The notes below the pieces were generated by a model. It did not search any database, was not told the DNA's origin, and saw only the letters and a program-made list of their open reading frames with translations. A stretch of DNA of 60,423 bases, the filler included, from Nemertoderma westbladi (lineage: Eukaryota; Animalia; Xenacoelomorpha): assembly GCA_032718475.1 (NCBI GenBank). It is 2 parts of 2 records of this genome, joined end to end, with 100 filler letters (N's around TTAATTAATTAA, not from the genome) between each part and the next. Parts side by side here need not be neighbours in the genome. Positions count along the whole stretch, not along the records: positions 30,986 to 60,423 come from JAUCBJ010006211.1; 1 more part is not named here. One strand, given 5' to 3'. The position numbers were made by a program, and so were the translations under genes. This document shows positions 10,640 through 58,380 of the stretch, in pieces (within the stretch, counting starts at the first letter, position 1; the number at the start of each line of letters is the position of its first letter).

Positions 10640-11090
10640 TGTCATAAAATATATATATTCAAGTAGGGAAATAAAGTTTGTTTTCGTTAATGATTTAATG
10701 TTAATGTGCATAGTACAGTAGTTGGCAACAGCAGGGGTTCATTGACATCAACTCATACATTATATCATTGATATACATACAGTATCGTCTATATTATTAA
10801 CTATTGTTTGTACAACGCTAGAATTACCTCATCGTTAGGAAGACATGCCCCTGCTGTTCGTCCTAATTAAAAGGGTCAATTAGTATTGCTACAATAATAG
10901 GAGTATACATAGAGTGTTGGTGCGGTGATGGTAAAACCAGTTGCTAATTGTCGTTGTAATATGTGTCATTTTTGTAATTAGTTAGTTAATTATTAAATTA
11001 GAGAAATATGTAATCATAATATTGTGTTTTTTAAACTGTTCATGGGCGGTTCAACAATCAGAAGAATATACATTCATCCCGTTCATGACA
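10640..11090 (+). repeat. 5' LTR of BEL/Pao element 1
   Basis: Direct repeat of 17316-17766; no differences seen by eye. Confidence 0.97.
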
Positions 11091-11100
11091 TGGCGCCCGA
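11091..11100 (+). promoter_or_regulatory. Primer-binding site TGGCGCCCGA (tRNA-Lys type)
   Basis: Immediately 3' of the LTR; matches the first 10 nt of the tRNA-Lys3 PBS TGGCGCCCGAACAGGGAC. Confidence 0.85.
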
Positions 11101-11410
11101 TGTTAAACGGCAGTAATATTCAACTGGGTAAGTCAAACTTCATTAGGAATACAGAATCACAGTAATTATACTGTGATAATTATATTTGCGTTGGTGTCTT
11201 CTATCTAATTGCAACAACCAAGGACAATATGAAATTATCGAAATCTGTTAATGCAAATTAGCGTCAACTACAGTAACTTCATAAATGTTTGACTTACTCA
11301 ATTGTACTGGTACGTTACAGTAAGCACCAGTGCGACGCAAAACAGGATTGCTTCTGTCGCTTACATATTAATTCACAGGTTCAACACACGATTTCCCAAC
11401 ATCAGCAAAC

Positions 11411-17116: not shown

Positions 17117-17306
17117 AATAGTCATAAAGAAATACAATACGAACATTCTTCATACTTTATCATATTTGAAAATTATAATGTGCAATTAATTACACTAAAC
17201 AATATAACCTATTGTTTACTGTATATTAGTCATTTTTTGAAATTTTTTAAATGCAATAATGTATAACCCCACGTGGTGAAGGTTATGATTTGAAACTATT
17301 AGTTTC

Positions 17307-17315
17307 AAGGGGGAG
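17307..17315 (+). promoter_or_regulatory. Polypurine tract AAGGGGGAG
   Basis: Directly precedes the TG of the 3' LTR. Confidence 0.9.
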
Positions 17316-17766
17316 TGTCATAAAATATATATATTCAAGTAGGGAAATAAAGTTTGTTTTCGTTAATGATTTAATGTTAATGTGCATAGTACAGTAGTTG
17401 GCAACAGCAGGGGTTCATTGACATCAACTCATACATTATATCATTGATATACATACAGTATCGTCTATATTATTAACTATTGTTTGTACAACGCTAGAAT
17501 TACCTCATCGTTAGGAAGACATGCCCCTGCTGTTCGTCCTAATTAAAAGGGTCAATTAGTATTGCTACAATAATAGGAGTATACATAGAGTGTTGGTGCG
17601 GTGATGGTAAAACCAGTTGCTAATTGTCGTTGTAATATGTGTCATTTTTGTAATTAGTTAGTTAATTATTAAATTAGAGAAATATGTAATCATAATATTG
17701 TGTTTTTTAAACTGTTCATGGGCGGTTCAACAATCAGAAGAATATACATTCATCCCGTTCATGACA
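17316..17766 (+). repeat. 3' LTR of BEL/Pao element 1
   Basis: Direct repeat of 10640-11090. Confidence 0.97.
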
Positions 17767-30985: not shown

Positions 30986-32298
30986 TCCGTCCGCTACCGC
31001 CATTATATTTTACCTGTTGTGTCATACTATACTATATCAACTGTCAGACTATTATACCTATATACATATTACCCAACATCAGAACTCTTTTACCTTTCAC
31101 ACATGGCGGGGACGCGTGGATAGAAAACCCAACGGATAAACCGGGATCCGTAGATCCCGTCACAATGGCATCGATTGAGTAGCAGTAAGGCCACCGTGCA
31201 ATATAACCAATAACCTATTACTCAGTGATTCAGTTATCTCAGTGCAGCAGTGCTAGCGTAGGGTACAGCCAATTAGTTTAGTTAGGGGATCACAGGACTT
31301 TAGTTACCGTATCCCGCCTACCGTATAATTCACAATATATCTATATCCTATAACCTATTATTATACACCGAACTTCAGAACTCAGTTATCTTTATTTCAC
31401 TCTTATACACGGCGGGGACGCGTGGACTAAATACCACATCGGATAAATCGGGATCCCTCCTGGATCCCGTCACAGTAACTAAAGCGAGCTGCCGCCCTAG
31501 TTAAACTCTAAGAACTGCAACCTAGCTAGCCGAATCATCAGCCACAAACGAGATGAGTGAATCGGGCGAGACACCAACGCGGACCCCGGGCGAAGATCAA
31601 ACGATCCGCGAGGCCGCGACCAAGCGATACAGGCCCACGACGCCGGAGCCATCGATAACGGGCGAACCGGAAATTGAGGATGAGGGGGGCCTGGAACCCG
31701 AAGTCGAGCCAAGAGAGAGAGAGAGCGAGACGGAGGGAGAGGGAGATGAGTCGACACGGGACGGAGAACGGCGCGCCGATGTCGCCGGCCAGCTACCGGC
31801 CGAGGGCGACGAGCGGCCCACCGAAACGGCGACGGTGGGGCCGACGGTGCGACGCCGGACACGAAGAGACGGAGGAGAGATCGGTACCGATGTCGCCGGC
31901 CAGCTACAGGCCGAGGGCGACGGACGGCCCACCGGAACGGCGACGGTGGAGCCGCCGGTACGACGTCGAACCCGGAGGGACGGAGGAGAGGTCGGCGACG
32001 AGGACGTCGGGGTTTCTGAGCGACTTCGACGGGCCTACAACGCGACCCGGAAGCTGATAAACGATGCCATTCCCCCCTCTGATTGGTTAATACCCTTGTT
32101 GGCGCCCCGTGGAGTATTCCCGTTCACTCCACCTGTTCTCCTTGGGTTAGGGGTTTGGCCCCTGACCCTCTATTGTGTGCTTCCTTCCCACTCTCATTGG
32201 GATGGCACGAGTTGGTTAATTGCCCAATCTCGTGGCTCCCAATGTTGCTTATCGGCTAATAACTTTATGGGGTGTTGGCGGGATTGAATAAGCTAACA
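30986..32298 (+). mobile_element. Rearranged fragments of sister subfamilies of BEL/Pao element 2 (two LTR 3' halves, leader, start of ORF, inverted LTR 5' half)
   Basis: GGCGGGGACGCGT...GATCCCGTCACA ends at 31164 and 31474 match the element 2 LTR. ORF 31553 (MSESGETPTRTPGEDQTIREAATKRYRPTTP) is homologous to 53793-52622. 32062-32298 matches the other LTR half in opposite orientation. Confidence 0.85.
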
Positions 32299-37547: not shown

Positions 37548-37919
37548 GGTCAGGTCAGGTATTCTAGGTCATTGATCAAGAAAACTTACCACCTCCATGC
37601 AGCATAAAGGAGGTGCCACCTGTAGCTGCATAGACCCTCTTACTAGGGCAAATCTGGTCCTGTAACTAGGACCCCCTTCGTTCTGGGATAAGGACGCCCT
37701 TGGTCCTGGATTAAGGACCCATATACTTGGCTGCAGGGGTATATGGCCTGACCAGGCAGATGGTGAGCTACCAATGGCTGGTCAGGAGTAGAGTGTTCTC
37801 ATGTCCACTCTGAGAGCACTTCACTGCGACCTGCACCTGGCAGCAAGGGTACAGGGCATGACCCAGCAGATGAGCTGCAACAGCCAATGGTGGGTCATGT
37901 GTGCCAGAGTAGATATGGT

Positions 37920-38912
37920 AAATTTTGGTGCTAGCACCAAATTCCGTACCCATCACCAAAAAGTACAAGTTTGAGATGTCCAGTGCTGTTTTTATTGATT
38001 TCATCGGATTCAGAACCCTAACCGTATAACGCAAGAAACAAGATGATACTATCTTCTGATCAATTTACTCTTTTTCCAAAATTTGGTGCTGGCACAACAA
38101 TTTTCACCCACCGGCGAAAAATTCAAGTTTGAAAACTCTTATGAAATTTTTACCGATTCCATTGAATTCAGAACCCTAACAAACCCGTATAACGCAAGAA
38201 ACAAGATGACACAATCAATTGATATGTTTGATGGTTTTCAAAATTTGGTGCTAGCACCACATTTTGCACCCACTTCCGAAAAATACAAGTTTGAGATGTC
38301 TAGTTCGATAATTATATATTCCATTGAATTCAGAACAGCCATAAACCTCTAAAATGCAAGAAATAAATTGTCACAAGCAATGTGTTAGCACCAAAATTTG
38401 CACACAGCACCGAAAAATGCAAGTTTGATACGCTTGGTGCAACTCGTATATATTTTATCGAAACCAGAACCCCAAAAATTCCCAATTGCAACAAATCAAA
38501 CAATCAATTTACAAAATTGACATATTTCAAAATTTGGTGCTGGCACCAAAATTTGGCACCCGCCGAAAAAAACAAGTTTGAAATTTCTAAATCAATTTAT
38601 ATGAATTCCATCCAATTGCTAACACCAAAAAACCGATGTAAATCAAAAATAGAGATGTTACAATTAATTTTTAATGAAATGTAATTTTCAAAAAACGTCT
38701 CAAAAAAGTGCCAAAACTAGGGTTAAAAAATGGTGCTATAATTCGAAAACTACCCAATATTTTTGAAAACGGTTTTCACTACTAGGAAGACAATAGATTT
38801 TTAGGAAAATTCATAAAATTTCAGATTCCCAACTGCGTTTGTTTCAGAATTATAATAAAAAAACCACGGGAAAGGGTCATATTGACCCCCCCTCCCCCCG
38901 GGTTTAATAGGG
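37920..38912 (+). mobile_element. Left-truncated copy of the piggyBac-type MITE at 56074-57523
   Basis: High identity to 56500-57523; ends ...TAGGG|TTAA. Confidence 0.85.
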
Positions 38913-39110
38913 TTAATCGGTTATGAACAATTGGGAGATGGTAATCATCAATTTTAAAAAGATAAAGAGGGGTATCGTCGTTGAAAAAAGTCTCGGTGAA
39001 TGTGAGAACTTCAAATTTGAAATCTGGTGATTTTAGAAAAAATTAATTGCGTCGAAATTGAGAGATAAACTAAAGCAATTTAGATGGAACACTGAAAATG
39101 ATTGTTTTTT

Positions 39111-39575
39111 TGAGTCTGCGAAATCGTTTCTAGAAGTCTGGGGAGTATATGAGTCAGCAAAATCGTTTCTAAAAGTCTGGGGGGTATATGAGTCTGGAAA
39201 ATCGTTTCTAAAAGTCTGGGGGGTATATGAGTCTGGAAAATCGTTTCTAAAAGTCTGGGGGGTATATGAGTCTGCAAAAACGTTTCTAAAAGTCTGAGGG
39301 GTATATGAGTCTGGAAAATCGTTTCTAAAAGTCTGGGGGGTATATGAGTCTGGAAAATCGTGTCTAAAAGTCTGGGGGGGTATATGAGTCTGCAAAATCG
39401 TTTCTAAAAGTCTGGGGGGTATATGAGTCTGGAAAATCGTTTCTAGAAGTCTGGGGGGGGGGGGGGGTATATGAGTCTGCAAAATCGTTTCTAAAAGTCT
39501 GGGGGGTATATGAGTCTGCAAAATCGTTTCTAAAAGTCTGGGGGCTATATGAGTCAGCAAAATCGTTTCTAGAAG
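39111..39575. repeat. 39-bp minisatellite, left part (target of element 2)
   Basis: Unit TCTGGGGGGTATATGAGTCTGCAAAATCGTTTCTAAAAG; resumes at 54430. Confidence 0.95.
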
Positions 39576-40156
39576 TGTGACGGGATCGATGGATTCCGAT
39601 TTATCCAGTTGGGTTTTCTATCTACGCGTCCCCGCCGTGTGTGTAAAAGGGTTAGTTTAGAGTTCTGAAGTTCTTTGATCGATATGTGTAAAATACAATG
39701 CATAGAGTGATATAAGCACAGTTAATAGGATTAAAGTGAGCAAATGATATACCGGTAGGTAAGTATTACATATGGTGGCGTCGGTAGACGGTAATAGAAG
39801 TTCCCGTTTCACCCTAACTGAACTGATTAACTAAACTGAATTAATTGGCACAACAAATGATAATATATATTGCACCGTTGGCCGCATTACATTACTCAGT
39901 CGATGCTTGCCCTCCCATTGGCTAACAACTCACTTCTCGCCTCCCATCTCACTGGGAGTGTTCCCCCCCCCCCCCCCACTGCTGTTATTCTCTCTCTCGG
40001 AGGTAAAAACCTCTGACCCCCTTTGTGTGTTCCCCTGGGGCCTGTTGTCCCCGTTTATTGGGGTGACACGAGGTTGATTGGTAATCAACCTCGTGCTCCC
40101 AATATTGCTTAAAGCCAACTTTTTGGGGCTGGCTAGCGGAATTGAATACGCTAACA
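39576..40156 (-). repeat. 3' LTR of element 2
   Basis: Direct repeat of 53856-54429 with roughly 14 substitutions and 1-2 indels by eye; preceded on the minus strand by PPT TTGGGGGGAG (40157-40166). Confidence 0.95.
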
Positions 40157-41082
40157 CTCCCCCCAAGCTATCTTCCCGGTGAGAAGATAGCATCCACCTC
40201 TAGTGCGCTACAATTCCGCTGGATCCCGATCTACCATCGGGTGTGGGGTGGAGTTATTTTTCCCGGAGCCGGCTTTCCAGGCCGCTCCCTATGGGTATAA
40301 TATTGCTACCCCGTCTTGGTACAACTCTACCTATCTAGTACCAAGACATCTGGCGTCCCGTGTCGGGCCGATCGTGCGCTCCTCTCACTCGACTTTTGTT
40401 TTCCCAACACTTTCACCACTCTAACTCCGCTCTATCCCTTACTCCAACTTCTCAACCACTCCAACTCTTACTCCTCCCCCGCCCCACACTCGAATTGCAC
40501 TCCTCTCACTGTTCCTCATCCTGTCAAAAATCTCCTCTCCACTCTCCCCCTGATTCCCATTCTCGCTTTTGTCCCTTACACATTCATCGGGCCCCACACA
40601 TGTGTACATCATGTTAGTGGGAACCGTCTAAGTCCCGTCCTGTCGCCCTAGTTAATTAGTCCCCAGTCCCAGTAGCTAATTGGAAAAGGTTGTGCTTGAC
40701 TACGGTACATACTTTATAATATATATATGCGAGTTACTTATATAAATATTATATGGCTATTATTATCATATGTTCGTGGTATTTCAACTTTTCATAACGC
40801 GAGTTGAATATTTTTTGTATTTATTTAAAATGATTATTCCGATATCACTACTGGGTGCGGGACTATGGGTTTTGGGCACATTCTATGAACTGGGGGCGAT
40901 TTATGGGCGAACATTGGGGCAACTTACAGGGTACGGGAATAATTTCATAGTTATAAGGGCCAGGGGTGGGAGGCAAAGTTAAGCAGTATTCAGGTTAGCC
41001 TGAGTACTATTAGGCCCTGGCCAACTTCCTGCTGCCTGTAGAGGTGGATTTGGTAACGCACCAGGCCTAAAGGACAAGGACT

Positions 41083-41882
41083 GCCCTTAGCGGCCCCTGG
41101 CCAACAGCAGTTATTACGAGCCTGAAAAGGACATCGGAACGCCGGCTGCTTGCGCCAGGGATTTGCGACGGGAAACGATAGCCCCCTTAGCTAAGCCGTA
41201 CTGGTTCTCGATGACCGATCCCTTCGGGGTTCGCGAGGGGTGGGACGGACATGCGAAAGGGTGGCCGACTAACAGAGGACGGGTTTGACGAGGACTTCCC
41301 TTAGCGGTCTCTGGTCAACAGCAGTTATTACGAGCCTGAAAAGGACATCGGAACGCCGGCTGCTTGTACCAGGGATTTGCGAAGGGAACCGACGACAGAC
41401 CCCTGAGCTAAGCCGTACTGGTTCTCGATGATCGTTCCCTTCGGGGTTCGTGAGGGGTGGGACGGACATGCGACGGGGTCGAAAGACAAAGGACTGGACG
41501 CTACTGGCCTACCGACTGTTCGGAGCAGTTTCTTGGCTGCCGAAGCGACTACGAGCCTGAATAAGGACTCGGAAAGCCTAGGTGGTTGGGTCTCTGCGAT
41601 GAACCGATGGACCCCTAGCCAAGCCGTACTGGTTCTCGATGATCGAACCCTTCGGGGTTCGGGAGGGGTGGGACGGATGCGCGAACGGGTCCACCGACAC
41701 GACAGACTCCTAGCCAAGCCGTACTGGTTCTTGATGATCGATCCCTTCGGGGATCGGCAGGGGTGGGACGGATAAGCAACAGAGTCTACCGACTGGACCG
41801 ACCCTTAGCCAAGCCGTGCTGGTTCTCGATGATCGATCCCTTCGGGGTTCAGGAGGGGTGGAACGGACACGCAACAGGGTCG
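41083..41882 (+). ncRNA. Putative array of eight structured RNA hairpins (A-B-A-B-A'-B-B-B), antisense to element 2
   Basis: B modules: long stem, GAU bulge with tandem GA/GA, cUUCGg loop, covarying basal stems. A modules: nested stems capped by CCU-GAAA-AGG. Expression not shown. Confidence 0.55.
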
Positions 41883-42694
41883 ACCGACACCGACACTACG
41901 GCACTAAGACCAGGACTGGGGAACATTAGGTAGGCTAAAATCTGGGGAACATTGGGTAGGCTAAAATCTGAGTGAACAGTGGGTAATTAAATAATATACT
42001 GTAGGGATTTATATTGTCGTGTATAATTATTGTGAATATTTGGTGTATATTGATTTGGGGAAGCCCAATTAATTATCAATCAGGATTCAATGTTGTTGAA
42101 CAGGATTCAACTGTAGGAAGTTACATTAAAGAGTATATCCAACCAATGCAATTTTTCCTCAACCGCAATCCTGCATTCAAGATATCATTCCTTCTCCACA
42201 ATCAATATCCGGTGACTGGCCGGGACTCTGTGGTCTGTAAAGTCACGTCTCCAGCATCGGCGTTTTCCCCCCTGGTGTTTGGGATAACGGCAACATCATA
42301 TATTATATTATATACTCGTCTACATAACTCGCCTCATTCTCTTTCGGCCTTTCTCCCCTGGCGACTTCTTCCAGTCGCTTCTCCCCAAATCTATGCTTCC
42401 AACTTCTCCCACGTGATATGTGTATCCACTTCCCTGTCTACTAGATGCCGGCTGTTGTATTACTCCGACTCGCCCTTCAGCCCCAGGTGGTCTACCAGAC
42501 CTTCGAAGGCCACCTTGAAGGCTTTTCTGTAGTTCGGAGGTGATCCCAATATTCTTGATTTTTTTTTGTTTTGTATTATCTCTGTTTTGTGCTATTACCC
42601 TACCTACCTTTCTTGCTACTATTTCTATGATATATCGTGCTCTCTTATCTCTTACTATATACTATATCTTATACATATCCTCCTACCACCAATT

Positions 42695-43699
42695 CTTGCT
42701 ACTAACGGCACTCTACGTACCCTCTTACTAACTAATTCTACAACTAACTACTACTCTTACTAACTGGTACTACGTACCCTCTTACTGAGCTTAAACTCCC
42801 ACTAACTCTTTCTAACCGGTACTACGTACCCTCTTACTAACCTCTAACTCCCACTAACTCTTACTAACCGGTACTACGTACCCTCTTACTACTAATCTCT
42901 TACTACCTAACTAGCGGTACTACGTACCCTCTTACTGACCTCTAACTCCCACTAACTCCTACTAACCGGTACTATGTACCCTCTTACTAACCTCTAACTC
43001 CCACTAACTCTTACTAACCGGTACTACGTACCCTCTTACTACTAATCTCTTACTACCTAACTTGCGGTACTACGTACCCTCTTACTAACCTCTAACTCCC
43101 ACTAACTCTTACTAACGGTACTACGTACCCTCTTACTAACCTCTAACTCCCACTAACTCCTACTAACCGGTACTACGTACCCTTTTACTACTAACCTCTT
43201 ACTACCTAACTAGCGGTACTAGGTACCCTCTTACTAACCTCTAACTCCCACTAACTCTTACTAACGGTACTACGTACCCTCTTACTAACCTCTAACTCCC
43301 ACTAACTCCTACTAACTGGTACTACGTACCCTTTTACTACTAACCTCTTACTACCTAACTAGCGGTACTACGTACCCTCTTACTAACCTCTAACTCCCAC
43401 TAACTCCTACTAACTGGTACTACGTACCCTCTTACTACTAATCTCTTACTACCTAACTAGTGGTACTACGTACCCTCTTACTAACCTCTAACTCCCACTA
43501 ACTCTTACTAACAGTACTACATACCCTCTTACTAACCTCTAACTCCCACTAACTCCTACTAACCGGTACTACGTACCCTCTTACTACTAATCTCTTACTG
43601 TCTAACTAGCGGTACTACATACCCTCTTACTACTAATCTCTTATTATCTAACTAGCGGTACTATGTACCCTCTTACTACTAATCTCTTACTATCTACAG
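42695..43699. repeat. Compound tandem repeat of GGTACTACGTACC hairpin plus ACTAAC motifs in element 2 3' region
   Basis: About 20 units of 45-52 bp in two alternating types; about two dozen TACTAAC on the plus strand. Confidence 0.9.
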
Positions 43700-43837
43700 G
43701 CTGCGTACCTATTATGTACTATTACTTTCATTATTTTATTTATTTATTTTTTTTTTTTATATTTATGTGTGGGAAGGGCGTCTCGCCCTCAATCCCACCC
43801 CCCTCAGTCCAAACTTGGACAACTAAACTCTACTCGA

Positions 43838-46800
43838 CTAAGGTGCTCCCTCTAACAGGCAGCACTTCCCTACAGCCCTCCTGTAGATCTTCCTATCTTT
43901 CGCCCCTATCTTGCCACCTATCCGCACTTCTACCGATCGGACTCTTTCGTCCTCATCGGAGTAAGTGCCCACAACTCTCACCAACTGCCACTGGTTGTTG
44001 ATAATGGTATCGTCCGTGACGATCACCAGATCACCCTCCTTCAACTCCCTGTTTGTATTTCTCCACTTGCTTCTCCTATGAAGCGTGGGTAGGTATTCCT
44101 CGACCCACCTCCTCCAGTACTCCGTGCTTATTGCCTTAGCGACTTTCCAACTCTGGCGGGAGTGTATATCGTCTGGGTCTACACCCCGCATGTCGATTGT
44201 CGCTGGCCTTTCCATTAGAAAGTGACTGGGCGTCAGCACATCTAATGACTCAGGGTCATCATTTTCTGGATATAGCGGTCTGCTATTAATGATACCCTCA
44301 CACTTTGCTAGTACCGTTCTTAGTACGTCCTCTGTAACCATGTGGGTGTTCATCAACTTCGTCATCAGACGTTCGAACTACCCACGAGTCTCTCGACGCA
44401 TCCTAGAGTATGCGGAGCATACGGCGTCCTCCTCTCCCACTTTACCTGTCGCCTTCTCATGGCTGCCCTGACTTCCTCCCCTTCCAGGATATCCAAGGCC
44501 TCTGCTATCTCGTTCCCTGCCCCCACAAAGTTGGTTCCGTTGTCAGAATATATTACTGCGATTTTCCCACCTTTGCGGTCTCTGAACCTTTCTAGAGCAT
44601 TAATAAATGCTGATGCAGTTGCATCTTGGGCGAGTTCTATCCCTACCGCTCGCGTGTTATTACACACAAAGATGATACCGTAGCTTTTCTCCGTGTGTCG
44701 CATCACCTTAATCTTTATTGGCCCGAACATATCCACACCGCAATGCGTAAATGGCGGGTAATTTTCTCTTACCCTACTCGCTGGTAGTGGAGCCATCTCC
44801 TGTATGGCTAGCTCCTTCTTCGTTCATTGGCAGGTCTGGCACTGCCCCACTACTGCCTTTACTTTCTTCCTCAACTGTTTGACCCAAAAGGTCCTCCGTA
44901 TCTCCGTGAGGGTCCGGTTGGTGCCCTTGTGCAATATCGACTTATGGGAGTCCCATATAATCTGGTGGACTATCGCGATCTATTAGGGATGATGATGGGC
45001 TTTGGTGGGATGACAATACTGTTGTTGTTCAACACCCTAGAGTTCATTACTAGGATCCCGTCATCATTGAGTTGTGGTGACAGCGCGATCAGCTCACTGT
45101 GCCGTTGGAGATGCTGTTGTTTACCGACGCATTCCACCTCGTCGCCGTAGTTCTTTCTCTGTTCATAGTGGATGATTGCCTTGGCCGCTCCCTCCAGATC
45201 GATGGTTGTTTGAATTTTTACGTCTTTGCCGACTCTCTTGAGGAAATTCCCGAAGGCTCTCCAGTACGCTACTAACTTCTTGGTCTTGTACCAACTAGAG
45301 CTGTAGCTAAGGAGTTTGTCCGTTGGGTTATCGCACAGTTCTCCCGGTTTTGGTTGCACGTCCCTTATCTCCCTCACCATTTGGCTGTATATCTCTTCAC
45401 TCTCTGAATCACCTTCCTCTTCCTCTAATGCTGCCTCTCCTGAGCCCGGGTCAACCTTTCTCATCGGCGGCCAGGCTGTCTTATCACTCAGAAATTGTGG
45501 CCCATGCTGCCACAATACTTCTTTCTTTAAGAAAGTGTGGCGTGCCACGCCCCTCAATAACAAGTCCGCTGGGTTCTCGTCCGTTGGGCAGTAGTGCCAC
45601 CTTTGTAACTCTGTGGTGGCCCTTATTTCGTCCACCCTATTTGCAATGAATATAGGGTACCTCGTCCTTTCGTTATGTAGCCAACCAAGCACTACCATGG
45701 AATCCGTCCAGTAGTGTGTCTCCACTATGTTGGGAATAGCGTCCATCAAGTAGGCTGTGGCCCTTACTCCTAACCTCACTGCTGTTAACTCGAGTTTTGG
45801 AACTGATGCCGAATCTGGTGGCGTCGACTTCGCCTTGCTGAATGCGAGTCTGGGCTTATGAGCCCCCCTCGTTGTACTAAGTAGAGTGCCGCTCCGTATG
45901 CTTCTAACGACGCATTGGAGAACATATGTAAATCCAGATTCGTCATGTCCCCATCTGGGAAATACACGCGTGGCATGCTGTATGTTCCCATCTGCTCTAA
46001 ACTCTCTGTCCACTTGCGCCACTGCTTCCTGATCTCTTCCGGGACCTCCGTGTCCCAATCCTCCTTCAATTTGTATACTCTCTTGAGTATCTGTTTCCCC
46101 GTGACTAGTAATGGGGAGGCTAGGCCTAGGGGATCGTATATCCTTGCTATGTACGACACATAGCCCCTCTTTGTGTGGATGTCTGCACCCTCCTGGCTCA
46201 ACTGATACTTCAGCTCATCTGTTTCTCTGTTCCACACGATCCCCAGTGCCTTCTGTTGGGACTCTATTCTCCTGCTCGCCATGTCCTGTCCCTTAGCTGT
46301 GGTGGGATTATCCATGGTCGATTCTGGTCTCTCGTCCTTTATGGCCTTGATAAATTCCTCTGAACTGGATTGGAATTTGGTTAGGTTAAAGCCGGATCCC
46401 TTAAGGATGTCGCGAACCTCGTGCCCTGTGTCCAGTAGTTCCTTAACCTTTTTTCCAGACTCCATCCCGTCGTCCACATAGAAGCCGCGTCGAATCATAT
46501 CGACGGCCCTAGCGCTGTATTTATCTTCCTTCCCCTCTACTGTATCTCTTACGGCCACAGTTGTCGTAAATGAAGATGACTTGGCTCCCATATTCTGTAC
46601 TATCATCTTGTACATCGGTATTGTCGACGGTTCCTTGTCGCCGTTGTACCATCTGTTGTACCGCTGTCGCTATCCTCTTCCGTCACACGGACTTGGTTGA
46701 ACATGCCTTCTATGTCACAGGTGAAGGCGTGTTTCCCATTCCTGAATCTGAGTAGGACCTCGATCCCTGAGTTGTAGATATTGGGACCCTCCAGCAGATA

Positions 46801-49006
46801 ATCGTTTAGGCATTTTCCGTTGGTCTTAGCTGATGCGTCAACTACCATCCACAGTTTACCTTTCTTCGGGTCTAAAGCCACATGGGGTGGCAGGTAATAG
46901 GTCCTGTCCGTGTTTGGTTTGTCGACCGGTAGTTCTACGGCCCATCCTTTCTCGACATACTTCCTGATCGTTTTGTGAATGTACTCATTCTTTTCAGGGC
47001 TCTGTTTTAGCGTCTGCTTCAACTTACGAAGCCTCGCGAGTAAGCAAAAAATTATTCGACTTTATTGTCGGGTAGCGGTAGCTTCGGTAGCTTCCATACC
47101 ATCCCTATGGTATACCGCCCCTCATCGCATCTCATCGACTCCTTTACGCTCTGTAGAGCCTGTTTATCTTCTACCGAGGTTCCGACCCCGGTCTCTTTTA
47201 ATCCCTCAAAATCCTGCTTGAGCAGTCTCCTGAGCTGCCCCTCCGCTCTCTCATCTCCCATCTCTCGCATAGTTCCCGCGAACAAGCACCCTGAAGTCTC
47301 CGACATTCTAAATGGTATCTTGTTCTTAATTGGGCCACTCAGCGTCCACCCAAATGGTGTTAAAATTGCCACCGGGTCACACTGCCTGTCTTCGCCGAAG
47401 ACCGTTCGAATTCTCTCGTGGGCCGTTGGGCAGTCCATTCCTACTATGATGGATACCTTCCTAATGTCCTACTCTGGGATTGAGAAATCGATACTGTCCA
47501 GGAATTTATATTGTTTGACCTCGATGTTGGTTGGCCGTCTGGCGTTGATATTTATCGACTCTATCACCTTGATGGGGTCGATGGTCGCCCCATAGTCGCA
47601 TCCGGTGCTACCGCTGCTATCGCGCACCATCCGGTCCTCATCTCCAGGACCTCATCTTTGCTGGAGATGGCTGTTACCGCCATTCTACTTGGCCTCATTC
47701 TCAATCCTATCTCTTCGGCCACCCAATTCTCGACTAATGTGAAGGCTGCTCCACTGTTGACCAGCATCAGTGTGGTCACTGATCGATTGCCTTCCCCGAT
47801 TATCCTTACCGGTACTACCCCGAGTAGTACTGTTCTTCTTTTTTTTGCCCCTACGGTGCTCGTTGCCATCGTTTGCCCTTTGCCTTGTCCGAACTTAATT
47901 GGCGTTTCTTTGCATTGATCGGCTCTGTGTCCACTCATCACACATTGAGAACAAATTTCATATCTCCTTGCGTATTCTGTCTGATCTTCCCTGGGTAGCG
48001 CCTGCCAATACCTGCAGTTCATGGTCTGATGAAGTGCATTTGTATGTAATTGGCATTTGTTCTTTGGGTTATAGCCATCCTTATACAGTGCGCTGCATAT
48101 CGCACTTGCATTCGTACCCAAGTCCCTACTGTTCTTATTACTTGGGTTCGGACTACTGGGCGTGCTGGGGTTATGTTTATTTGTGTTGTTATTTTTCCCC
48201 TGTCCGCTCCATGATGTGGTCTTACCCCCGGCTATTTGTGGACTAGCAGTCCCCTGCGTCACCGCGTATGGCAGTGACTGTCTGAGCTTCGGCAATGCGT
48301 TCGACGCGTTGTGTTCCGGTTTTAGCCTGTGGTAATCGGTCTTTGGTCCCTTTCCCAGGCTATCCTCGCTATAGACTGGGTCCGTTATTAATTCGGCATT
48401 GTAGTTCAAGAAGCTTGACATTTCTTCTAAACCCGGTTCCGCACCCTTCCTTTCTCGAGTGGAGAAAGCGATTTTCCTCCACTTATTGCGCAGCCATATC
48501 GGTAGTGCCTGCGCTATCGTGGTGATGTTGTTAGACGCATTGAGTTCGTATGGCGCGTCCAGCATCTTTAACACGATTAGAGCTTTCTCGACTTTGTTCG
48601 CAAATGTCTTTATGCTAATGGGATTATCCTGTAGGCCACCTGATGTTATACCTCTCAGGGTTTGCCGGATGATCTTGGCCGGGTGCCCGTATTCCCTGTC
48701 TAATGCCCGCCATGCTGTCGTGAAGCCGACCTCGATGCCCTGGTATTGCCTCACGATGTCGTTTGCTGGGCCTCCTGTATATACTTGCAGATATTTTAGG
48801 CACTCCGCCTGCGTCAAGTTCTTTGTTAATATTTTGTTACTATACATGCGCCAAAACTGTAGGTATTCTTCCGGCCTACTTCCATCGAACTTAAATGGCT
48901 CTACAGGTGGCAGTTCGATCCTGGTCTTTAAGGCATTGATTAATGTAGCCATTTCCATTGCCTGTGCCTCCAATGGGTTCGATGGATGCTGTATAGATTC
49001 TCCCAT
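43838..49006 (-). pseudogene. Frameshifted BEL/Pao gag-pol of element 2
   Basis: Gag PFKFDGS..EYLQFW, Cys/His knuckles, protease LVNSGA (D to N), RT CDIEGMFNQV and YVDD, RNase H FSNAS (D to N), integrase VDMFGP/SDNGTNF/VERLV, W..EYLP C-terminal domain; split over several frames. Confidence 0.93.
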
Positions 49007-50454
49007 TGGGTGCGGTCCGTTTGTCCTATTTGCTGCCCTGTGTTGGGTATGTCATAGGGGGTAGCAGCCCCCTCCATATTTCTGTGTCACACGATCTGTT
49101 CTCGTCCAAGGGGTTTGATATTCTTGCTCCTATTGGGGTATATTGTTGATATTGTGATGGGGGAATGTCACCCTGCCCCCCCCCCCCCCCACCGGTATGT
49201 TTGATACTGGGGTTGATGTTAATATATTGGGGCCCATGCACCTATCCGCAATAATTCTCCCCTCCCCTAGATATATGTTATGTCCTTGCATGCTGTAGTC
49301 ATACTGCTGTGCTGGTACCGGTATAGGCATATCAACTTCTGGCCTACCTACTGGTATGTACTCCAGGACTTCTGGGTTTAATCCCATCGTCCGCGCTACC
49401 CTATCGCCTACATTATCTCTCCCAGCATGGCCTATGGTATGTGCAGTGAGTCCTATAGTATGTCCTGCAGTCTGTATGTGTCGCTCGGGATCAAAGTTTA
49501 TTCTTCTCGAGTAATCCTCCCCGCGGCTACCGTATTCTCGATCGGTAGGTAGATCCCGCCGGGAAGTTTCTCTTCGACCCCCTCTACTACTCTTGTCCTC
49601 GTACCGGTACATCGCGTACCCCTCTCTCGGCACGTAGTGCGCCTCATCAGGTCGCCTTTCTCCGGGACAACGGCAATCTCCCGAATTTCGACCCCACTGA
49701 CTCTCCGTTCCCATCTCGACTACCGACGGCTTGCTATCCATCCTTGCTCTCCTGTCGTTCGCGACGACACTTCTTCTACTTTCTTCTCTTCTTCTCTCTA
49801 TAGTGCAGTATTCCTGCTTGTGAGATCTCTCGTCGACCTCCCGGTTAAACTCCACTGTTCTTCTTCCCTCTTCTGATTGGGCTCGACGCTTCGTCCACCC
49901 TCTCGCGACGTCAACCTGTCTCTCTCTGCTCGATCGCACGCTGCTGGGGATACTCGCAATCCCCCTATTACGCTCCATTGCTGGGTGTTGCAGTTTACCT
50001 AATTCGGCCCGCGCATTATCCGTTGATGCCTGTGGGGCACTCTCTGCCCCCCCCCCCCCCTCTCGCCGCTAACTTCTTGTTGTGGGGCTCCTGTAGCCCC
50101 CCCCCCCCCCCCCCACTCGCCACCTATCACTCCATTACCTCTTACTTCACTTCTACACTCCTCTCGAGTCGACGCACTATCTCTATTGCGGCTGGGTCTA
50201 TTCACCCCTGCCTCTCTCTCTACTACTGCGAGGCCTACCAGGCCCCCCTCGGGTTGACTCAACCCCGCCACCTCCTACCTACTAACTACGTGGTCTACCA
50301 GGCCCCCTTCGGGTTGGCTCAACCCCGCCACTTCCTGCCTACTAACTACGTGGCCTACCAGGCCCCCTTCGGGTTGGCACAGCCCCTCCACTTCCTGCCT
50401 ACTGACTGTACGGCCTACCAGGCCCTCATTTGCCGGGTTATGCACGTCTGACAC

Positions 50455-52467
50455 GTTCATATTAATAGCACCACTATCAACACCATTAGTTAAGTCAACT
50501 AAATCCTCCAAGTCAATTAAATTATATTGTACGCCTATATTATAAACGGAATTATTTTGTTCGTTCGAAATAAGATTATTTGAATTATCTTGCGTAATTA
50601 TATTTTTTGAATTATTCTGCAAATTCGGATTCAGATTATTATTTAAATTATTTGGATTATTTTGCAAATTCGGATTCAGATTATTATTTAGATTATTTGA
50701 ATTATTTTGTAAATTAGAATGGCTCTGATTTAAATTACTACCGTCGGACAAAATATTATTTCCTGCAATGAAAGTTTGGTTAGAATTATCCACTATGGTA
50801 CTATTAATATTAACATTATCTACTGTATTATTATTACCCCCCCCCCCCCCCCCCCCAGTATGGTCACACCAGTCTTGGGTCTGTCGTGCGGTCCCTGTAA
50901 GTGGAGTATTATTTATTTTATTTATTTCTTTATTTACCGCAGGCAACATATGGAAAATATTATAATATAATCGCACAATCAGCCCATATCGTCTACCTAC
51001 GTTATAGCACAATAATTAAATATTAAGTATTCAATTGATTATGTATGTATGTACTTAGTAATACTAATAATTCGCTAAATTAACAGATTTTCGGAATTGC
51101 ACATTTCAAAAATTCTAGAACTATGCAACGCGGTGTAACGATATACAGCATTTACAATATAATTACTGGAACATTTTATCCTACGAAATAAACTTTGAAT
51201 TGATTTGTAACGTAAATGAATGAAGCACGGAATATTGTTGCAACCAAAGAAATATGACATACTAGAACCTACAGAGATGAAAAATAGCTTTCTTGCTGCA
51301 TTATTGTATGCTACCCTTAACCGATTATAGACAACAGATGAATAGTTCCTACGTGACCATAGAGCATTACAATATAGTGGAGTTATAAACGCTAGAAATA
51401 AACGAACTTTCACTGCAACGGTACAGGTACTGAATTTTCTAAACAACGTATTTGTACGGGCGTACATACTACCTATTTGTTTCTTTATGTCAAGATCATC
51501 ATCACGTGATTCGTGTATTATATGACCCAAATATGTAAATTTATCAGTTCTAGAAATAACACGCTGGTATAAATATATTGGAGCTATTGTACTTAAGTTA
51601 CAAGATTTCGGGCACAAAAACATTACCTTAGTCTTCTTTAAATTAAACAATATAGAATGTGAAATGGCATAATCCTGACACACATTAACTAACTTTTGTA
51701 AACCTATAAGTGAATTTGACATTAAGCCAATGTCGTCTGCATACATTGTATGATTAATCCTTTGACCATTAATTGAACAACCTACGTTAGCCATTATAAG
51801 TTTACGGGATAAGTCGTCCATGTAAACATTAAATAAATAACCAGATAATATTCCGCCTTGCTTCACGCCATTAAACACTGCAAACGTTCTGGAATACGTA
51901 GCACCCCAGCGCACTTGTAATGTTTGATGTCGGTACCAAAAGGCTAAAATACGCACCAAATAGAGTGGTACATTCCTATTTATTAATTTCTGAAAAAGTT
52001 TATCGTGATCTATTCTGTCAAATGCTTTAGATGCATCCAAGAAACAAATATACATAGGAGAATCATTATCTAAGTAATAATCAATAACCTCTTTCAGAGT
52101 ATATACACAAAGCTCGGTACCGCTATTTGCCTTATATGAGAATTGGTGATCGCTACAAATTAAGAAAGACTGCATTCTAGATAATAAAATACGTTCAAAT
52201 ATCTTACTTATTGCTGTTGAAATAGCAACGGGCCGATAGTTTGATTTCTCATCTATAGCACCGTTTTTATCTTTAATGATTGGTACAATAATACTATGAA
52301 TAATGGAACTTGGTAAATAACCATGTACCATACAAGAACTGAAAAATAAAGCTAATAAAATATTTAGCCTACTACTATTACTGTAAATGAAATGTTCCCC
52401 AGACACATTATCTGGTCCTATCGCTTTACCTAATTTTAAATTAGCTATTGCACATCCTACTAATAAA
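50455..52467 (-). mobile_element. 5'-truncated CR1/L2-group LINE (open RT frame 51075-52467) plus AT-rich 3' sequence, nested in element 2
   Basis: KAIGPDNV, NYRPVAI, FLDASKAFD, GVKQGGILS, MYADDI, FTYLGH; abrupt AT-rich composition within GC-rich Pao sequence. Boundaries approximate, clade assignment tentative. Confidence 0.85.
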
Positions 52468-53793
52468 TGTTTCCCTAACTCCTGGCTCCTCATAAATACT
52501 CGAGCCAGCCTCGCTCTCTGACAACCCCATCTGCGCCAGTTCTAGTCGGCGCTTCTGTTTCGTCTGATACTGCATAAGCCCCCTTAGCCGGGCATGCATA
52601 CCATCCCGCACACGTTTTCTCTCACTCTCTCTCTCTCTCTCTATCCTCTCGTGAACTCTGATCGGCTAACTCTGCCTCTCTCGCAACTCTCTCCAGTCGT
52701 CTCGCCTCCCTCGCCACCTCACGCTCTTTACGTTCCGCCTCACGCTCTTTACGTTCCGCCTCACGCTCTTTACGTTCACTCTGCTCTCTCGCCTCTCTCG
52801 CCTCCTCACGCTCTTCTCGCTCCTTTCTTTCCATCCTCCCTATTTCCTCGCACACCTTAAAGCTTCTCACGGCCTTCTCGGCCCTCTCTTTGTTCTCTCT
52901 AACCAGTTCTTTCTCCTTCTCTATTAACACACTCTCTTCCTCTAACTGTCTCTTTAATTCTCTCTGGTCTAGCGCCGCCAGATCGAGTTGGCACGCCAGT
53001 TCTATTTCTTGCACCCGTCTTTCTTTTGCGGAGGACATAGCAGACTTATCGGTTACGACGGACTCCCTCCGCCTCCCCGTCCTACTAACTTTCCCCCGCC
53101 TCCCAGAACTTTCTCCGACCGACGAGACCGAATCCTCGAGGTTAACCTTGGATTCGCCCTCCTGCGGTCCCCTCCAACCCACTAATTTTATTCCCCGGGC
53201 ATCGACTAAGTATGTCCCTATGTACACTACACTAGGCTCCATACCCCTACATTCCCATAGTTCAAACAGTTCGCTGGCAACCTCTCTCGCTCTCTTGCTG
53301 GCTAGTTCTCCCTGCCCAAAACGCATTAAATAATCGAAATGCCTGTTCGACTCACCTAGCCGCTTTTCCAACTTCACCTGGTCTATCTTGGCCCCTCCTT
53401 TAGCTTCTTTCAGTTGCTTCCGGGTTGCGGCATAGGCCCGTCGAAGCCGGTCGCTGACCCCAACGTCCTCGTCGCCGACATCTCCTCTATCTCTCCAGGT
53501 CCAGCGTCGTACCGGCGGCCCCACTGTTGCCATTCCGGTGGGCCATCCGTCGCCCTCGGCCTGTGACTGGCCGGCGACATCAGCACGTCGACCGCCGTCG
53601 TGTGTCAACTTGTCTCTCTCTCTCCTCCCGACTCGTCTTCTAGTTGTAGACGGCCCCCTTCATCTTGGATTGCCGGATCGCCCGTTATCAATGGATCCGG
53701 CGTCGTGGGTCTGTACCGTTGCATCGCGGCCTCGCGGATTGTTAGGTCGTCGTCCGGGGTCCGCGGCAATGTCGTTTCTCCTTCTCGACTCAT
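52468..53793 (-). pseudogene. Charged/coiled-coil N-terminal ORF region of element 2 (continues at about 50454-49007)
   Basis: MSREGETTLPRTPDDDLTIREAAMQRYRPTTP... then E/R/K-rich coiled coil; frameshifted; homolog at 31553-32057. Confidence 0.75.
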
Positions 53794-53844
53794 CCTTACA
53801 TTTAGTATAGGTTGGTAGCTGGCAGCAATGGTTTCGGGTTTCGG

Positions 53845-53855
53845 ACTTCTATTAC
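53845..53855 (-). promoter_or_regulatory. Non-tRNA primer-binding position GTAATAGAAGT, complementary to LTR-internal ACTTCTATTAC (54081-54071)
   Basis: Abuts the CA end of the 5' LTR; no TGG; perfect 11-nt inverted repeat with the LTR interior. Confidence 0.75.
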
Positions 53856-54429
53856 TGTGATGGGATCGATGGATCCCAATTTATCCAGTTGGGTTTTCTA
53901 TCTACGCGTCCCCGCCGTGTGTGTAAAAGGGTTAGTTTAGAGTTCTGAAGTTCTTTGATCGATATGTGTAAAATACAATGCATAGAGTGATATAAGCACA
54001 GTTTATAGGATTAAAGTGAGCAAATGATATACCGGTAGGTAAGTATTACATATGGTGGCGTCGGTAGACGGTAATAGAAGTTCCCGTTCCACCCTAACTG
54101 AACTGAGTAACTAAACTGAATTAATTGGCACAACAAATGATAATATATATTGCACCGTTGGCCGCATTACATTACTCAGTCGATGCTTGCCCTCCCATTG
54201 GCTAACAACTCACTTTTCGCCTCCCATCTCTCTGGGAGTGTTTTCCCCCCCACTGCTGTTATTCTCTCTCTCGGAGGTATAACCTCTGACCCCCTTTGTG
54301 TGTTCCCCTGGGGCCTGTTGTCCCCGTTTATTGGGGTGACACGAGGTTGATTGGTAATCAACCTCGTGCTCCCAATATTGCTTAAAGCAAACTTTGTGGG
54401 ACTGGCTAGTGGAATTGAATACGCTAACA
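53856..54429 (-). repeat. 5' LTR of element 2
   Basis: Direct repeat of 39576-40156; TATA-like ATATATATT and several TCAGT Inr-like motifs on the minus strand. Confidence 0.95.
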
Positions 54430-54601
54430 AGAAGTCTGGGGGGTATATGAGTCTGCAAAATCGTTTCTAAAAGTCTGGGGGGTATATGAGTCTGGAAAAT
54501 CGTTTCTAAAAGTCGGGTGGGTATATGAGTCTGCAAAATCGTTTCTAAAAGTCTGAGGGGTATATGAGTCTGGAAAATCGTTTCTAAAAAAAGTCTGGGG
54601 G
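54430..54601. repeat. 39-bp minisatellite, right part
   Basis: Continuation of the 39111-39575 array after the TSD. Confidence 0.93.
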
Positions 54602-56073: not shown

Positions 56074-57523
56074 CCCTATTAGTACCGGGCTATAAAATGC
56101 TGTACAAATGCCGAAAAAAAAATTTTCGAAAAAATGTACTGCGGTGGTAATATTGCAGCACCAAAATTACAAGTAGAGCACAATTTTAACAAAATTTGAA
56201 AGTTACATTTTTCTGCTAATTGTTTTTCAATACAGGTTTTCTGAGGCGCAAAATACTTTGGAAAATATTTAAAAATGATATGATTACCATAAATGGCTGT
56301 TTAGTCCTCTATGCGTAGGAAAAAAATGAAGAAAACAAGTAACTAGCACTTTTCAGTTAGAACACAAAATTTTTAATTCACTTATACGATGCTAAAAATT
56401 TACATTTTCAGGTTTTATAGGGCGCTGATTCTAATGGAATACATTTCAAATATGCCAGATCATTGCTACTTGTATTTTTTGGCGTAATTTGGCAAATGTT
56501 GGTGCTAGCACCAAAATTTCGTACCCATCACCAAAAAGTACAAGTTTGCGATGTCCAGTGCTGTTTTTATTGATTCCATCGGATTCAGGACCCTCATAAA
56601 CCCGTATAACGCAAGAAACAAGATGATACTATCTACTGATCAATTTACTCATTTTCCAAAATTTGGTGCTGGCACAATAATTGTCACCCACCGGCGAAAA
56701 ATACAAGTTTGAAAACTCTTATGAATTTTTTACTGCTTCCATTGAATTCAGAACCCTAACAAACCCGTATAACGCAAGAAACAAGATGACACAATCAATT
56801 GATATATTTGATGGTTTTCAAAATTTGGTGCTAGCACCACATTTTGCACCCACTTCCATAAAATACAAGTTTGAGATGTCTAGTTTGATAATTATATATT
56901 CCATTGAATTCAGAACAACCATAAACCTCTAAAATGCAAGAAATAAATTGTCACAAACAATTTTATCTATTGAATGGATTTTCAAAATTTCGTGCTAGCA
57001 CCAAAATTTGCACACAGCACCGAAAAATACAAGTTTGATACGCTTGGTGCAACTCGTATATATTTCATCGAAACCAGAACCCCAAAAAACCCCAATTGCG
57101 TAAAAACAAGTTTCAAACAATCAATTTACAAAATTGACATATTTCAAGATTTGGTGCTGGCACCAAAATTTGGCACCGGCCGAAAAAAACAAGTTTGAAA
57201 TTTCTAAATCAATTTACATGAATTCCATCCAATTTCTAACACCAAAAAACCGGTGTAAATCAAAAATATAGATGTTACAATTAATATTTGAAATGTAATT
57301 TTCAAAAAACGTCTCAAAAAAAGTGCCAAAAGTAGGGTTAAAAAATGGTGCTATAACTCGAAAAGTACCCAATATTTTTGAAAACAGTTTTCACTACTAG
57401 GAAGACAATATATTTTTAGGAAAAGTCATAAAATTTCAGATTCCCATCTGCGTTTGTTTCAGAATTATAATAAAAAAACCACGGGGGGGGTCATATTGAC
57501 CCCCCTTCCGGGTTTAAATAGGG
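56074..57523. mobile_element. Non-autonomous piggyBac-type element (TTAA TSD)
   Basis: TTAA|CCCTATT...AATAGGG|TTAA; subterminal GGGGTCATATTGACCCC hairpin; periodic internal TTGGTGCTAGCACCAA palindromes; no ORF. Confidence 0.85.
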
Positions 57524-58380
57524 TTAACTATATTTTATATAAAGCGGAGGCGATTTAAACACTAGAAAAGTGAGGGAAGGGGGATTAAATATTCCACGTC
57601 ATTTTTTTGTATTATGAACGTTTATGATTTTGATTTCAACTTTTCAAATTTTTCATGATATAAATTCGACATCTCATCTGATGAATTATCGATTTTAATT
57701 GAACACCAACAATTAATTTCATTTAGAATACAATTAATTGTCCGTGCCATTTACGGAAATATCGAATAATTTATCCAATTAGTTGAATTGAACTAACCAA
57801 TCAGACATGACAGGATCACGTTCCACCTGCTACAACTAATTACTCTCGAGATTTACTGTTCAATTTACTATTTATAGCAGATAATAATATTCATTTACTT
57901 TATCAACGCAGCCTACAGTAGGTACGCAGCTTACAGTAGGCTGCAATCGGTATGCAGCCTACAGCCGCAGCCATAAAAATTAGGTCGAATTTGATCATCA
58001 ATAAAATATATAGATTGTATGTTATTTCAAATAAATTTAAATCACTCAATTATTTATTGAAAATTAAATACTCGTTAAGTTGATACAGGTTTCATTTAAC
58101 CAATTATGTTCCCCCTAAGTAAAAAGTATATCACCCTTAGCATAGAGTAGCGTGCAGGTAAAATAATAGTCGAGGTGCAGAATAAAATCCTCAATATAAA
58201 ACTAAGGGGCATTAGGGAACAAACATCTTTAAGGAATGCTATAAAAACATGACCTATTTCCTGTCAGTTTTGGTACCACTAAGAATATTAGTGATTAAAA
58301 TCAGCTACAACTTCCATCCATTACGAACTAGTTATGCCGCTTATGAAGGGGAGGAGTTGACATTCTCCCAGAGCAAACCT

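Follow-up and report, generated by a model that had tools for sequence, protein, structure and literature searches.

A repeated two-hairpin cassette with kink-turn and tetraloop-receptor patterns, antisense to gag-pol in a BEL/Pao retrotransposon of Nemertoderma westbladi

The host element

The window analysed here is a stretch of 60,423 nucleotides from Nemertoderma westbladi (assembly GCA_032718475.1), in which two parts of two records are joined by 100 filler letters, the second part (positions 30,986 to 60,423) coming from JAUCBJ010006211.1. Its minus strand holds a BEL/Pao long terminal repeat (LTR) retrotransposon (Table 1), recognizable by Pfam domains DUF1759 (gag), Peptidase_A17 in the peptidase region, rve (integrase) and DUF5641, by LTRs of the TG..CA form and by a 5-bp target duplication, AGAAG, at both element ends (39571-39575 and 54430-54434). 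In the Pfam analysis gag-pol lies in several separate broken frames, and the two LTRs are 95.8% identical, with 15 substitutions in 574 paired columns; the element is young and of high copy number. Protein searches returned relatives of its pol and integrase at 50% identity or less and none of its gag, and protein-guided scans of viral contigs for relatives of the element found nothing.

An array of hairpins occupies the 3′ non-coding region, about 1.9 kb beyond the last pol frame and 0.9 kb ahead of the 3′ LTR. Because the BEL/Pao domains lie on the minus strand, a plus-strand RNA of the array would be antisense to the genomic RNA, the orientation given in the original prediction, which had been made from the sequence alone.

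The host element is without a tRNA-type primer site. The 11 bases after its 5′ LTR (53845-53855) are the exact complement of an 11-mer within its own LTR (54071-54081 and 39791-39801), located about 37 bases downstream of a putative TATA/initiator start, and a related element keeps a 10-base primer/LTR match in different letters (31298-31307 with 31475-31484). This complementarity suggests Tf1-like self-priming in BEL/Pao; a literature search, with most subscription journals outside its reach, returned nothing on self-priming in this group.

Table 1 Features of the host element and the hairpin array (positions in the window)
Feature	Positions	Strand	Basis or remarks
BEL/Pao LTR retrotransposon, host of the array	39576..54429	minus	Pfam domains, LTR pair, flanks
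3′ LTR	39576..40156	minus	LTR pair comparison
Polypurine tract	40157-40164	minus	ahead of the 3′ LTR on the minus strand
TATA-like boxes, candidate antisense promoter	40720..40745 (at 40720, 40739)	plus	pattern match, weak, AT-rich context
Module B1	41084..41172	plus	rod-shaped hairpin with a large internal loop and a GAAA tetraloop (41124-41127); MFE z −2.3
Module A1	41181..41264	plus	basal stem, UA/GA loop, receptor pattern, k-turn, cUUCGg
Module B2	41298..41386	plus	rod like B1, GAAA at 41338-41341; MFE z −4.2
Module A2	41398..41480	plus	receptor core intact; k-turn with U.U at 3b:3n
Module B3	41495..41603	plus	rearranged B; five-base apical loop at 41559-41563 replaces GAAA
Module A3	41609..41692	plus	k-turn 3n=G; receptor position 3 = C
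Module A4	41704..41787	plus	decayed copy; one G.A pair lost
Module A5	41799..41882	plus	k-turn 3n=G; receptor position 3 = C
ATTAAA then GT-rich stretch, candidate antisense poly(A) signal	41986..41991	plus	pattern match
5′ LTR	53856..54429	minus	LTR pair comparison

Two alternating hairpins

The array is a two-part cassette in which a hairpin that we call A alternates with a second, B, in the order B1 A1 B2 A2 B3 A3 A4 A5. The original prediction described five tandem A hairpins and overlooked module B, whose three copies lie between A copies, together with the tetraloop-receptor pattern described below. The five A copies are where it placed them, and all align without a gap, 58 of 100 columns being invariant; their cores differ pairwise by 6–10% and their outer flanks by 49–56%. 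Searched unfiltered with an A model, the window yielded all five copies and nothing else at E < 0.1 (default filters missed A4). A and B have in common a basal frame, read from the sequence, in which a UA/GA loop adjoins two G-C pairs. In the alignment fold of B1 and B2 there is one compensatory pair and one change from C-G to U.G, with 0 of 28 predicted pairs broken, and B1A1 and B2A2 are one duplicated unit.

A hairpin at 40958-41080, just 5′ of B1, has a short motif in common with the 5′ arm of B, and its stretch 41006-41080 gets a weak score from the A model (13.5 bits, E 0.14); it is possibly an older, decayed module.

Of seven runs, six contain part of the stretch, and family variants were taken from contigs of four, namely X1, X2 and X5, from three studies of one organism (A), and X6, a putative RNA run from a second (B), whose contigs carry no information on strand or level. 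Contigs of all three organism-A runs cover the array, which is integral to the family; the best-matching DNA run may come from the window's own source. Joints within family contigs (41175 to 41699, 41179 to 41610, 41251 to 41684, 41271 to 41392 and 41346 to 41541), along with back-jumps, show gain and loss of modules, so that their number varies between family members. Record 26 of X6 (organism B; 886 nt, depth 5.7) passes from 40771-41185 to 41806-42278 and carries one B and one A only.

Comparison of the five A copies bears out the claim that their basal stems covary, with three of the six basal pairs changed on both sides. The covariation score of the A structure, 0.100, was reached by 1 of 500 shuffles and slid partners gave 0.008–0.050, a control that ignores relatedness, so that with five related sequences the shuffle figure is not a probability; the covariation is shallow because no homologue outside the host family was found. 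The covariation also claimed for the apical stem did not survive comparison with the family, as it rests on letters that are rare or private to individual copies. T stands at 41753 in 97.6, 99.7 and 100% of depth (X1, X2 and X5), making a U.U mismatch at 41742/41753 the family norm, and copies 3 and 4 closed it separately. No variant of at least 3% appears at 41742 in the A4-based variant table, which is incomplete, having no row for 41732 though four of the five window copies differ there; the table lists five commoner variants and shows the G lost from A4 to be missing from that copy alone.

Several letters of the window copies depart from the family. Those of A4 at 41753, 41758, 41775 and 41778 are private or rare, and those of A3 at 41678-41679 are unlike most family contigs. 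Conversion of an A.G mismatch to an A-U pair results from a family variant at 41767 (21–48% of depth). Invariant G.U pairs make up 4 of the 26 pairs of the A structure, and single A modules have weak folding z-scores, from −0.9 to −1.9 on the plus strand and from +0.3 to −1.4 on the minus strand.

A kink-turn pattern in module A

Four of the five A copies contain the standard kink-turn (k-turn) layout named in the original prediction, a 3-nt bulge followed by tandem G.A/A.G pairs between a C stem and an NC stem (in A1, bulge 41210-41212 and G.A pairs 41213-41214/41235-41236). The exception is copy 4, correctly described as having lost one GA: its 3′ G is missing, a private decay, since family depth reads G (2n is G in 99.9, 100 and 96% of depth). 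The pattern occurs four times on the plus strand of the window and never on the minus strand. Among 3000 dinucleotide shuffles each of A1 and A3 it arose in 5 and 6 (about 0.2%), and 80 other BEL loci, 882,998 strand-bases in all, contain it 16 times.

The C stem can also pair in a rival, unkinked register, plain Watson-Crick and shifted two bases along the G run, which Turner rules make more stable by 2.3–4.9 kcal/mol in all five copies; the window copies do not separate the two (92.3% paired when kinked, 91.9% in the rival). Family variants bear on the choice. A C at 41731 (3–12%) converts U.G to C-G at −2 in the kinked register and U-A to C.A in the rival. By deduction, two contigs, record 21 of X5 (depth 43) and record 25 of X6 (depth 2.2), carry U-A at −1 and C-G at −2 in the kinked register, where the rival has two C.A mismatches. 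In X6 record 25 an A at 41760 makes U-A replace C-G at −1, the U at −1b being assigned because the difference in alignment start (41728 on A4 versus 41828 on A5) fits only U there; in X5 record 21 the same letters were assigned from depth sums (138.5 + 43.1 + 46.5 = 228) and a distance-to-end value. Two contigs, one of them with a depth below 5, are the source of this deduced −1 compensation. At 18–24% of depth, the A at 41760 is commoner than the 41731 C; most such variants are unphased, and those partnered with C would break both registers. The 41731 variant and the two deduced contigs favour the kinked register, and Turner energies the rival.

As to class, the U.U pair that had been noted at 3b:3n in copy 2 is indeed there, yet the link drawn from it to box C/D and SECIS k-turns is not supported: the pair occurs in one copy of five, and 4b:4n is C:G rather than G:C. 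Position 3n is C, U or G in the window and A in 14–15% of family depth, and 4b:4n is C:G in four of the five copies, copy 5 having a C.A mismatch there. SECIS elements have a helix II of 10–13 bp with an apical AAR and follow, on their own strand, an ORF that contains UGA. Module A ends in a 7-bp stem with UUCG and was rejected as a SECIS; plus-strand ATG frames of at least 50 amino acids with an in-frame TGA number one upstream of the array, 69 amino acids long and inside the LTR. Box C/D k-turns keep U:U at 3b:3n and G:C at 4b:4n (PMC5689011). A box C/D snoRNA was rejected on both pairs and on the absence of RUGAUGA and of CUGA box D, and the A and B modules are likewise not of the box C/D type described for tiSNORD RNAs (10.64898/2026.07.28.740266).

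A C:G pair at −1, C:G at 4b:4n and 3n=G or 3b=C mark k-turns that fold in Mg2+ alone (PMC5689011, PMC4382518). Copies 1, 3 and 5 fit this class at −1 and 3b:3n, with copy 2 intermediate, and by sequence the A k-turn would fall in the self-folding (Kt-7-like) class rather than that of box C/D or SECIS; self-folding k-turns can still bind L7Ae-family proteins. Module A resembles standard k-turns such as Kt-7 and SAM-I in its 3-nt bulge with L3=U and its tandem G.A/A.G pairs (PMC5689011, PMC4382518), and differs from them in a G.U-rich C stem with a more stable rival register. Its short capped NC stem recalls the U4 5′ stem-loop, whereas −1 C:G, 4b:4n C:G and mostly 3n=G or 3b=C set it apart from box C/D and U4 k-turns.

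A tetraloop-receptor pattern

Introns, RNase P and riboswitches are the main known settings of the 11-nt receptor. Its pattern lies in the loop above the basal stem of A1 (GCUAAG/CAUGC, 41190-41195/41250-41254), recurs with an intact core in A2 (GCUAAG/CAUGC, 41407-41412/41467-41471) and is present as GCCAAG/CACGC in A5 (41808-41813/41868-41872). Shuffles of these three copies contain it 18, 20 and 25 times in 5000 (0.4–0.5%), for a pattern that was chosen post hoc; the other BEL loci, with 882,998 strand-bases, match it 36 times, and it occurs at five other places in the window. A3 and A4 deviate from it where most family depth fits it (94, 62 and 100% at 41678, 99–100% at 41679 and 98–100% at 41775).

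A1 and A2 contain the C2-G10 pair, the U3.A8 pair, the A4-A5 platform, the bulged position 9 and paired positions 1-11 and 6-7, whereas A3–A5 have C at position 3 and thus fail the U3.A8 core pair. Relative to the P4-P6-type GAAA tetraloop/11-nt receptor, A1 and A2 retain C2-G10, U3.A8, the platform and the bulge (PMC10243134, PMC11381326), but have G1-C11 and G6-C7 in place of C1-G11 and G6.U7. For the GAAA receptor, position 9 is tolerant and 6-7 variable, a Watson-Crick swap at 1-11 costs 0.5–1.5 kcal/mol and any 8A-3U substitution severely weakens binding (PMC10243134). Measured binders with such a G-C swap include GCUAAG_UACGC (−10.32 kcal/mol) and GCUACA_CAUGC (−10.8), in a set from −11.77 to −8.35 kcal/mol (PMC11381326); the exact A1/A2 variant is absent from the supplement rows examined of that paper, and a text search of the supplements of PMC10243134 found none of four variant strings. 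A1 and A2 are therefore predicted GAAA binders, and A3–A5, three of the five, predicted poor ones because of C at position 3 and the great weakening caused by 8A-3U substitutions.

Only A1 and A2, each of which comes after a B with a GAAA cap, have the intact receptor core; the B ahead of A3 is B3, with its five-base loop, and A4 and A5 are without a B. The GAAA loop that would partner the A receptor thus sits in the neighbouring hairpin, and the co-occurrence fits a B+A unit. As B1A1 and B2A2 descend from one duplication, the match of U3 with GAAA counts as one or two events, not five. The candidate receptor lies in an animal retrotransposon rather than in an intron, RNase P or riboswitch, and its docking is a prediction. 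B+A with its tetraloop/receptor pair, rather than a series of Snu13 sites, appears to be the functional unit.

Strand and candidate transcription signals

That the UUCG loop favours the plus strand is borne out by the motif counts between 40157 and 42700, where cUUCGg occurs five times on the plus strand and never on the minus. Loops of the wider cUNCGg form likewise number five and none, and GNRA hairpins four and none, and the plus-strand fold has both the lower energy and the lower z-score in all eight modules. A Pol II antisense unit of about 1.2 kb could be bounded by the TATA-like boxes and the ATTAAA at 41986; a second ATTAAA lies at 42125.

Searches for relatives

An Rfam 15 scan of the kind suggested with the original prediction found no family at gathering threshold (best E = 1.2, outside the element, then 7.8). 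The suggested search of other BEL/Pao elements came back empty: by blastn, nhmmer and covariance model there was no module in 80 BEL loci, the best of at least 561 in a metagenome scan (39–48% integrase identity), an absence that is weak evidence, as only 18 of the 80 extend at least 2 kb downstream. Nothing was found by Rfam in 19 of these loci. In viral contigs the A 5′ arm pattern had two matches, both in phage coding sequence and without further likeness, the B apex pattern one, without B context, and the k-turn/apex pattern none; module pattern scans gave none in metagenome contigs and none in prokaryote genomes, such exact patterns detecting close relatives only. The literature search, again with most subscription journals outside, contained no k-turn or receptor RNA encoded by LTR elements.

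Some unrelated structures were seen among the BEL loci. One locus (L006, 2572-2732) has a tandem pair of hairpins, each about 80 bases long, that have GCAA loops and covarying apical stems and end in a T run; they follow a short ORF downstream of an LTR and match nothing in Rfam. Five others (L021, L052, L065, L066 and L076) carry hairpin-forming repeats of 60–150 bases downstream of integrase, unrelated to the B and A modules.

Genetic parasites do encode compact RNAs. Adenovirus VA RNA and flavivirus sfRNA are virus-encoded decoy RNAs or duplicated 3′ UTR structures, and the five-hairpin miRNA cluster of BLV and the 5S RNA of Cassandra are retroelement-borne small RNA genes. The cassette resembles the former in its compact, repeated, non-coding modules and differs in being antisense to the genome, without intact Pol III boxes and, by eye, without a pseudoknot; likeness in sequence would not be expected. 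It resembles the latter as a hairpin cluster or non-coding RNA in the non-coding region of an LTR element, but has no terminators and no Rfam match, and its motifs are tertiary rather than processing signals.

Interpretation

The sequence analysis shows the array itself, where and on which strand it lies, its changing number of modules, covariation in the basal and B stems, and all three motif patterns. Motif asymmetry, basal covariation and the deduced −1 compensation support the part of the original prediction that proposed a plus-strand k-turn RNA; the link to box C/D or SECIS is not supported. Our best reading, which we hold tentatively and with slightly less than even confidence, is that the element encodes a selected antisense RNA with a tertiary fold that would serve it as a stable decoy or scaffold. 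A cassette of B and A hairpins in variable number would be transcribed antisense; the GAAA loop of B would dock into the 11-nt receptor of A; the k-turn would fold, bend the tip of A and probably bind an L7Ae-family protein; and docking, within one B+A unit or between molecules, would in the second case give multimers. The folded RNA would then be a stable multivalent particle, a decoy or scaffold for host RNA-binding proteins.

The evidence is stronger for the fold than for the job. Under the published motif rules it is more likely than not that the k-turn of copies 1, 3 and 5 would fold in Mg2+ alone and that the A1 and A2 receptors would bind GAAA, and we lean, a little less firmly, towards antisense transcription of the cassette. 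Binding of an L7Ae-family protein such as 15.5K/Snu13 seems evenly balanced, and we rate below even the possibility that the element benefits from the RNA as a decoy or scaffold. A bolder proposal is rather unlikely: that this is a new class of antisense RNA, a natural tectoRNA of k-turn and GAAA/11-nt receptor that forms self-assembling multimers or an undescribed ribozyme, possibly serving tRNA-free priming or defence against host silencing. The motifs are individually textbook; new is the way they are combined in an LTR element, as an antisense cassette of variable copy number that fits none of the tested families. If the reading is true, it adds a new kind of parasite-encoded RNA machine, in which k-turn and tetraloop/receptor are repeated antisense in an animal retrotransposon, and long BEL/Pao 3′ regions, usually dismissed as tandem repeats, may hide folded RNAs.

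Alternative readings

A selected, folded antisense RNA might instead be a catalyst or processing guide, either a new ribozyme or a helper that makes the element's primer, which we consider improbable. A tetraloop/receptor with a self-folding k-turn (PMC5689011) is ribozyme or riboswitch architecture, and self-priming, in an element without a tRNA-type primer site, would need a cut in its own RNA. The internal loop of B has UAUUAC and GAA as in loop B of the hairpin ribozyme, yet inspection by eye showed neither the catalytic A38 nor loop A. Hammerheads are built from CUGAnGA, GAAA and NUH blocks with stems I–III, and non-circular permutations occur in retroelements (PMC10085705). Against that report the GAUGA-stem-GA of A is core-like, and a minor family variant, by deduction, spells CUGAUGA-stem-GAA; however, the window copies have neither CUGAnGA nor GAAA after the stem, the block S was not found, and the minor variant carries G instead of A at 15.1, with no cleavable strand located. 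With CUGANGA absent from both strands of 39576-43800 and no ribozyme match in Rfam, the hammerhead was rejected in any permutation, and HDV, twister, pistol and hairpin ribozymes were dropped by eye against their general consensus. Pairing between B and the primer site extends over only 7 bases and is lost in B3.

We regard as equally improbable a captured or once-functional RNA, or the relic of a Pol III-type gene, amplified by slippage without benefit. Its 5′ arm is A-box-like and its GGTTCG B-box-like by the usual consensus, module number changes freely, copy 4 and B3 have decayed, and the single-module z-scores are weak. Against a relic, the two-sided changes arose between paralogous modules within the element; there is no Rfam family and a tRNA search found no tRNA. 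On the plus strand of 39576-43800 there is no strict A or B box, and no T4 run between 40870 and 42152 that would terminate single genes, so a Pol III type-2 gene (tRNA, vault or VA-like), with its A box, B box GTTCRANNC and T4 terminator, was rejected. A tRNA-like cloverleaf was dropped by eye against the general consensus and on the tRNA search, and an H/ACA guide on an ACA spacing of about 20 rather than 14–16, likewise by eye.

Less probable again is an action on the genomic (minus) strand or as DNA, as a packaging, dimerization or recombination signal, with the plus-strand motifs as by-products. The minus strand is the one that is certainly transcribed, Watson-Crick covariation is strand-neutral and the basal stems are kept in minus-strand folds; against this, G.U pairs turn into A.C there, the k-turn, receptor, GNRA and UUCG patterns occur on the plus strand alone, and the plus-strand advantage in energy and z-score holds throughout.

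Least probable is the small-RNA precursor that the original prediction offered as its own alternative, a pri-miRNA-like cluster whose hairpins Drosha and Dicer would cut into guides of about 22 nt: cuts 13 and 11 bases from the base would, by the usual rules, release a precursor of 59 nt with the near-invariant 22-mer as its 5′ arm, four of the five A stems are followed by CGAC and candidate TATA and ATTAAA signals flank the array, but the cut would land in an internal loop with 8 of 13 lower-stem positions paired, the apex is as conserved as the arms (8.9% pairwise difference versus 6–10%), k-turn, receptor and GAAA are left unexplained, the 22-mer has no match or complement of at least 11 bases elsewhere in the window, and the only Rfam miRNA match has E = 7.8 on the other strand. 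The pri-miRNA form itself, a well-paired stem of about 35 bp with divergent loops, was rejected on the internal loops at and below the expected cut and the conserved apex.

Other features of the window

Within the host element, a LINE-like reverse transcriptase frame (Pfam RVT_1; 51075-52541) lies inside the 5′ coding region on the same strand. A tandem array of 46–52 base units (42750-43720) lies in the 3′ non-coding part, with pol on one side and the B/A cassette on the other, and the U3 end of the 3′ LTR and the surroundings of the polypurine tract hold strong hairpins on both strands (39997-40360; z to −7.9). A second BEL/Pao element (10640-17747), without an A module, has one intact frame of 1914 amino acids, near-identical LTRs and an ordinary TGG-type primer site. 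Two 1-kb copies of another repeat (37913-38916 and 56487-57527), 90.7% identical and with internal units of 160 bases, flank the region.
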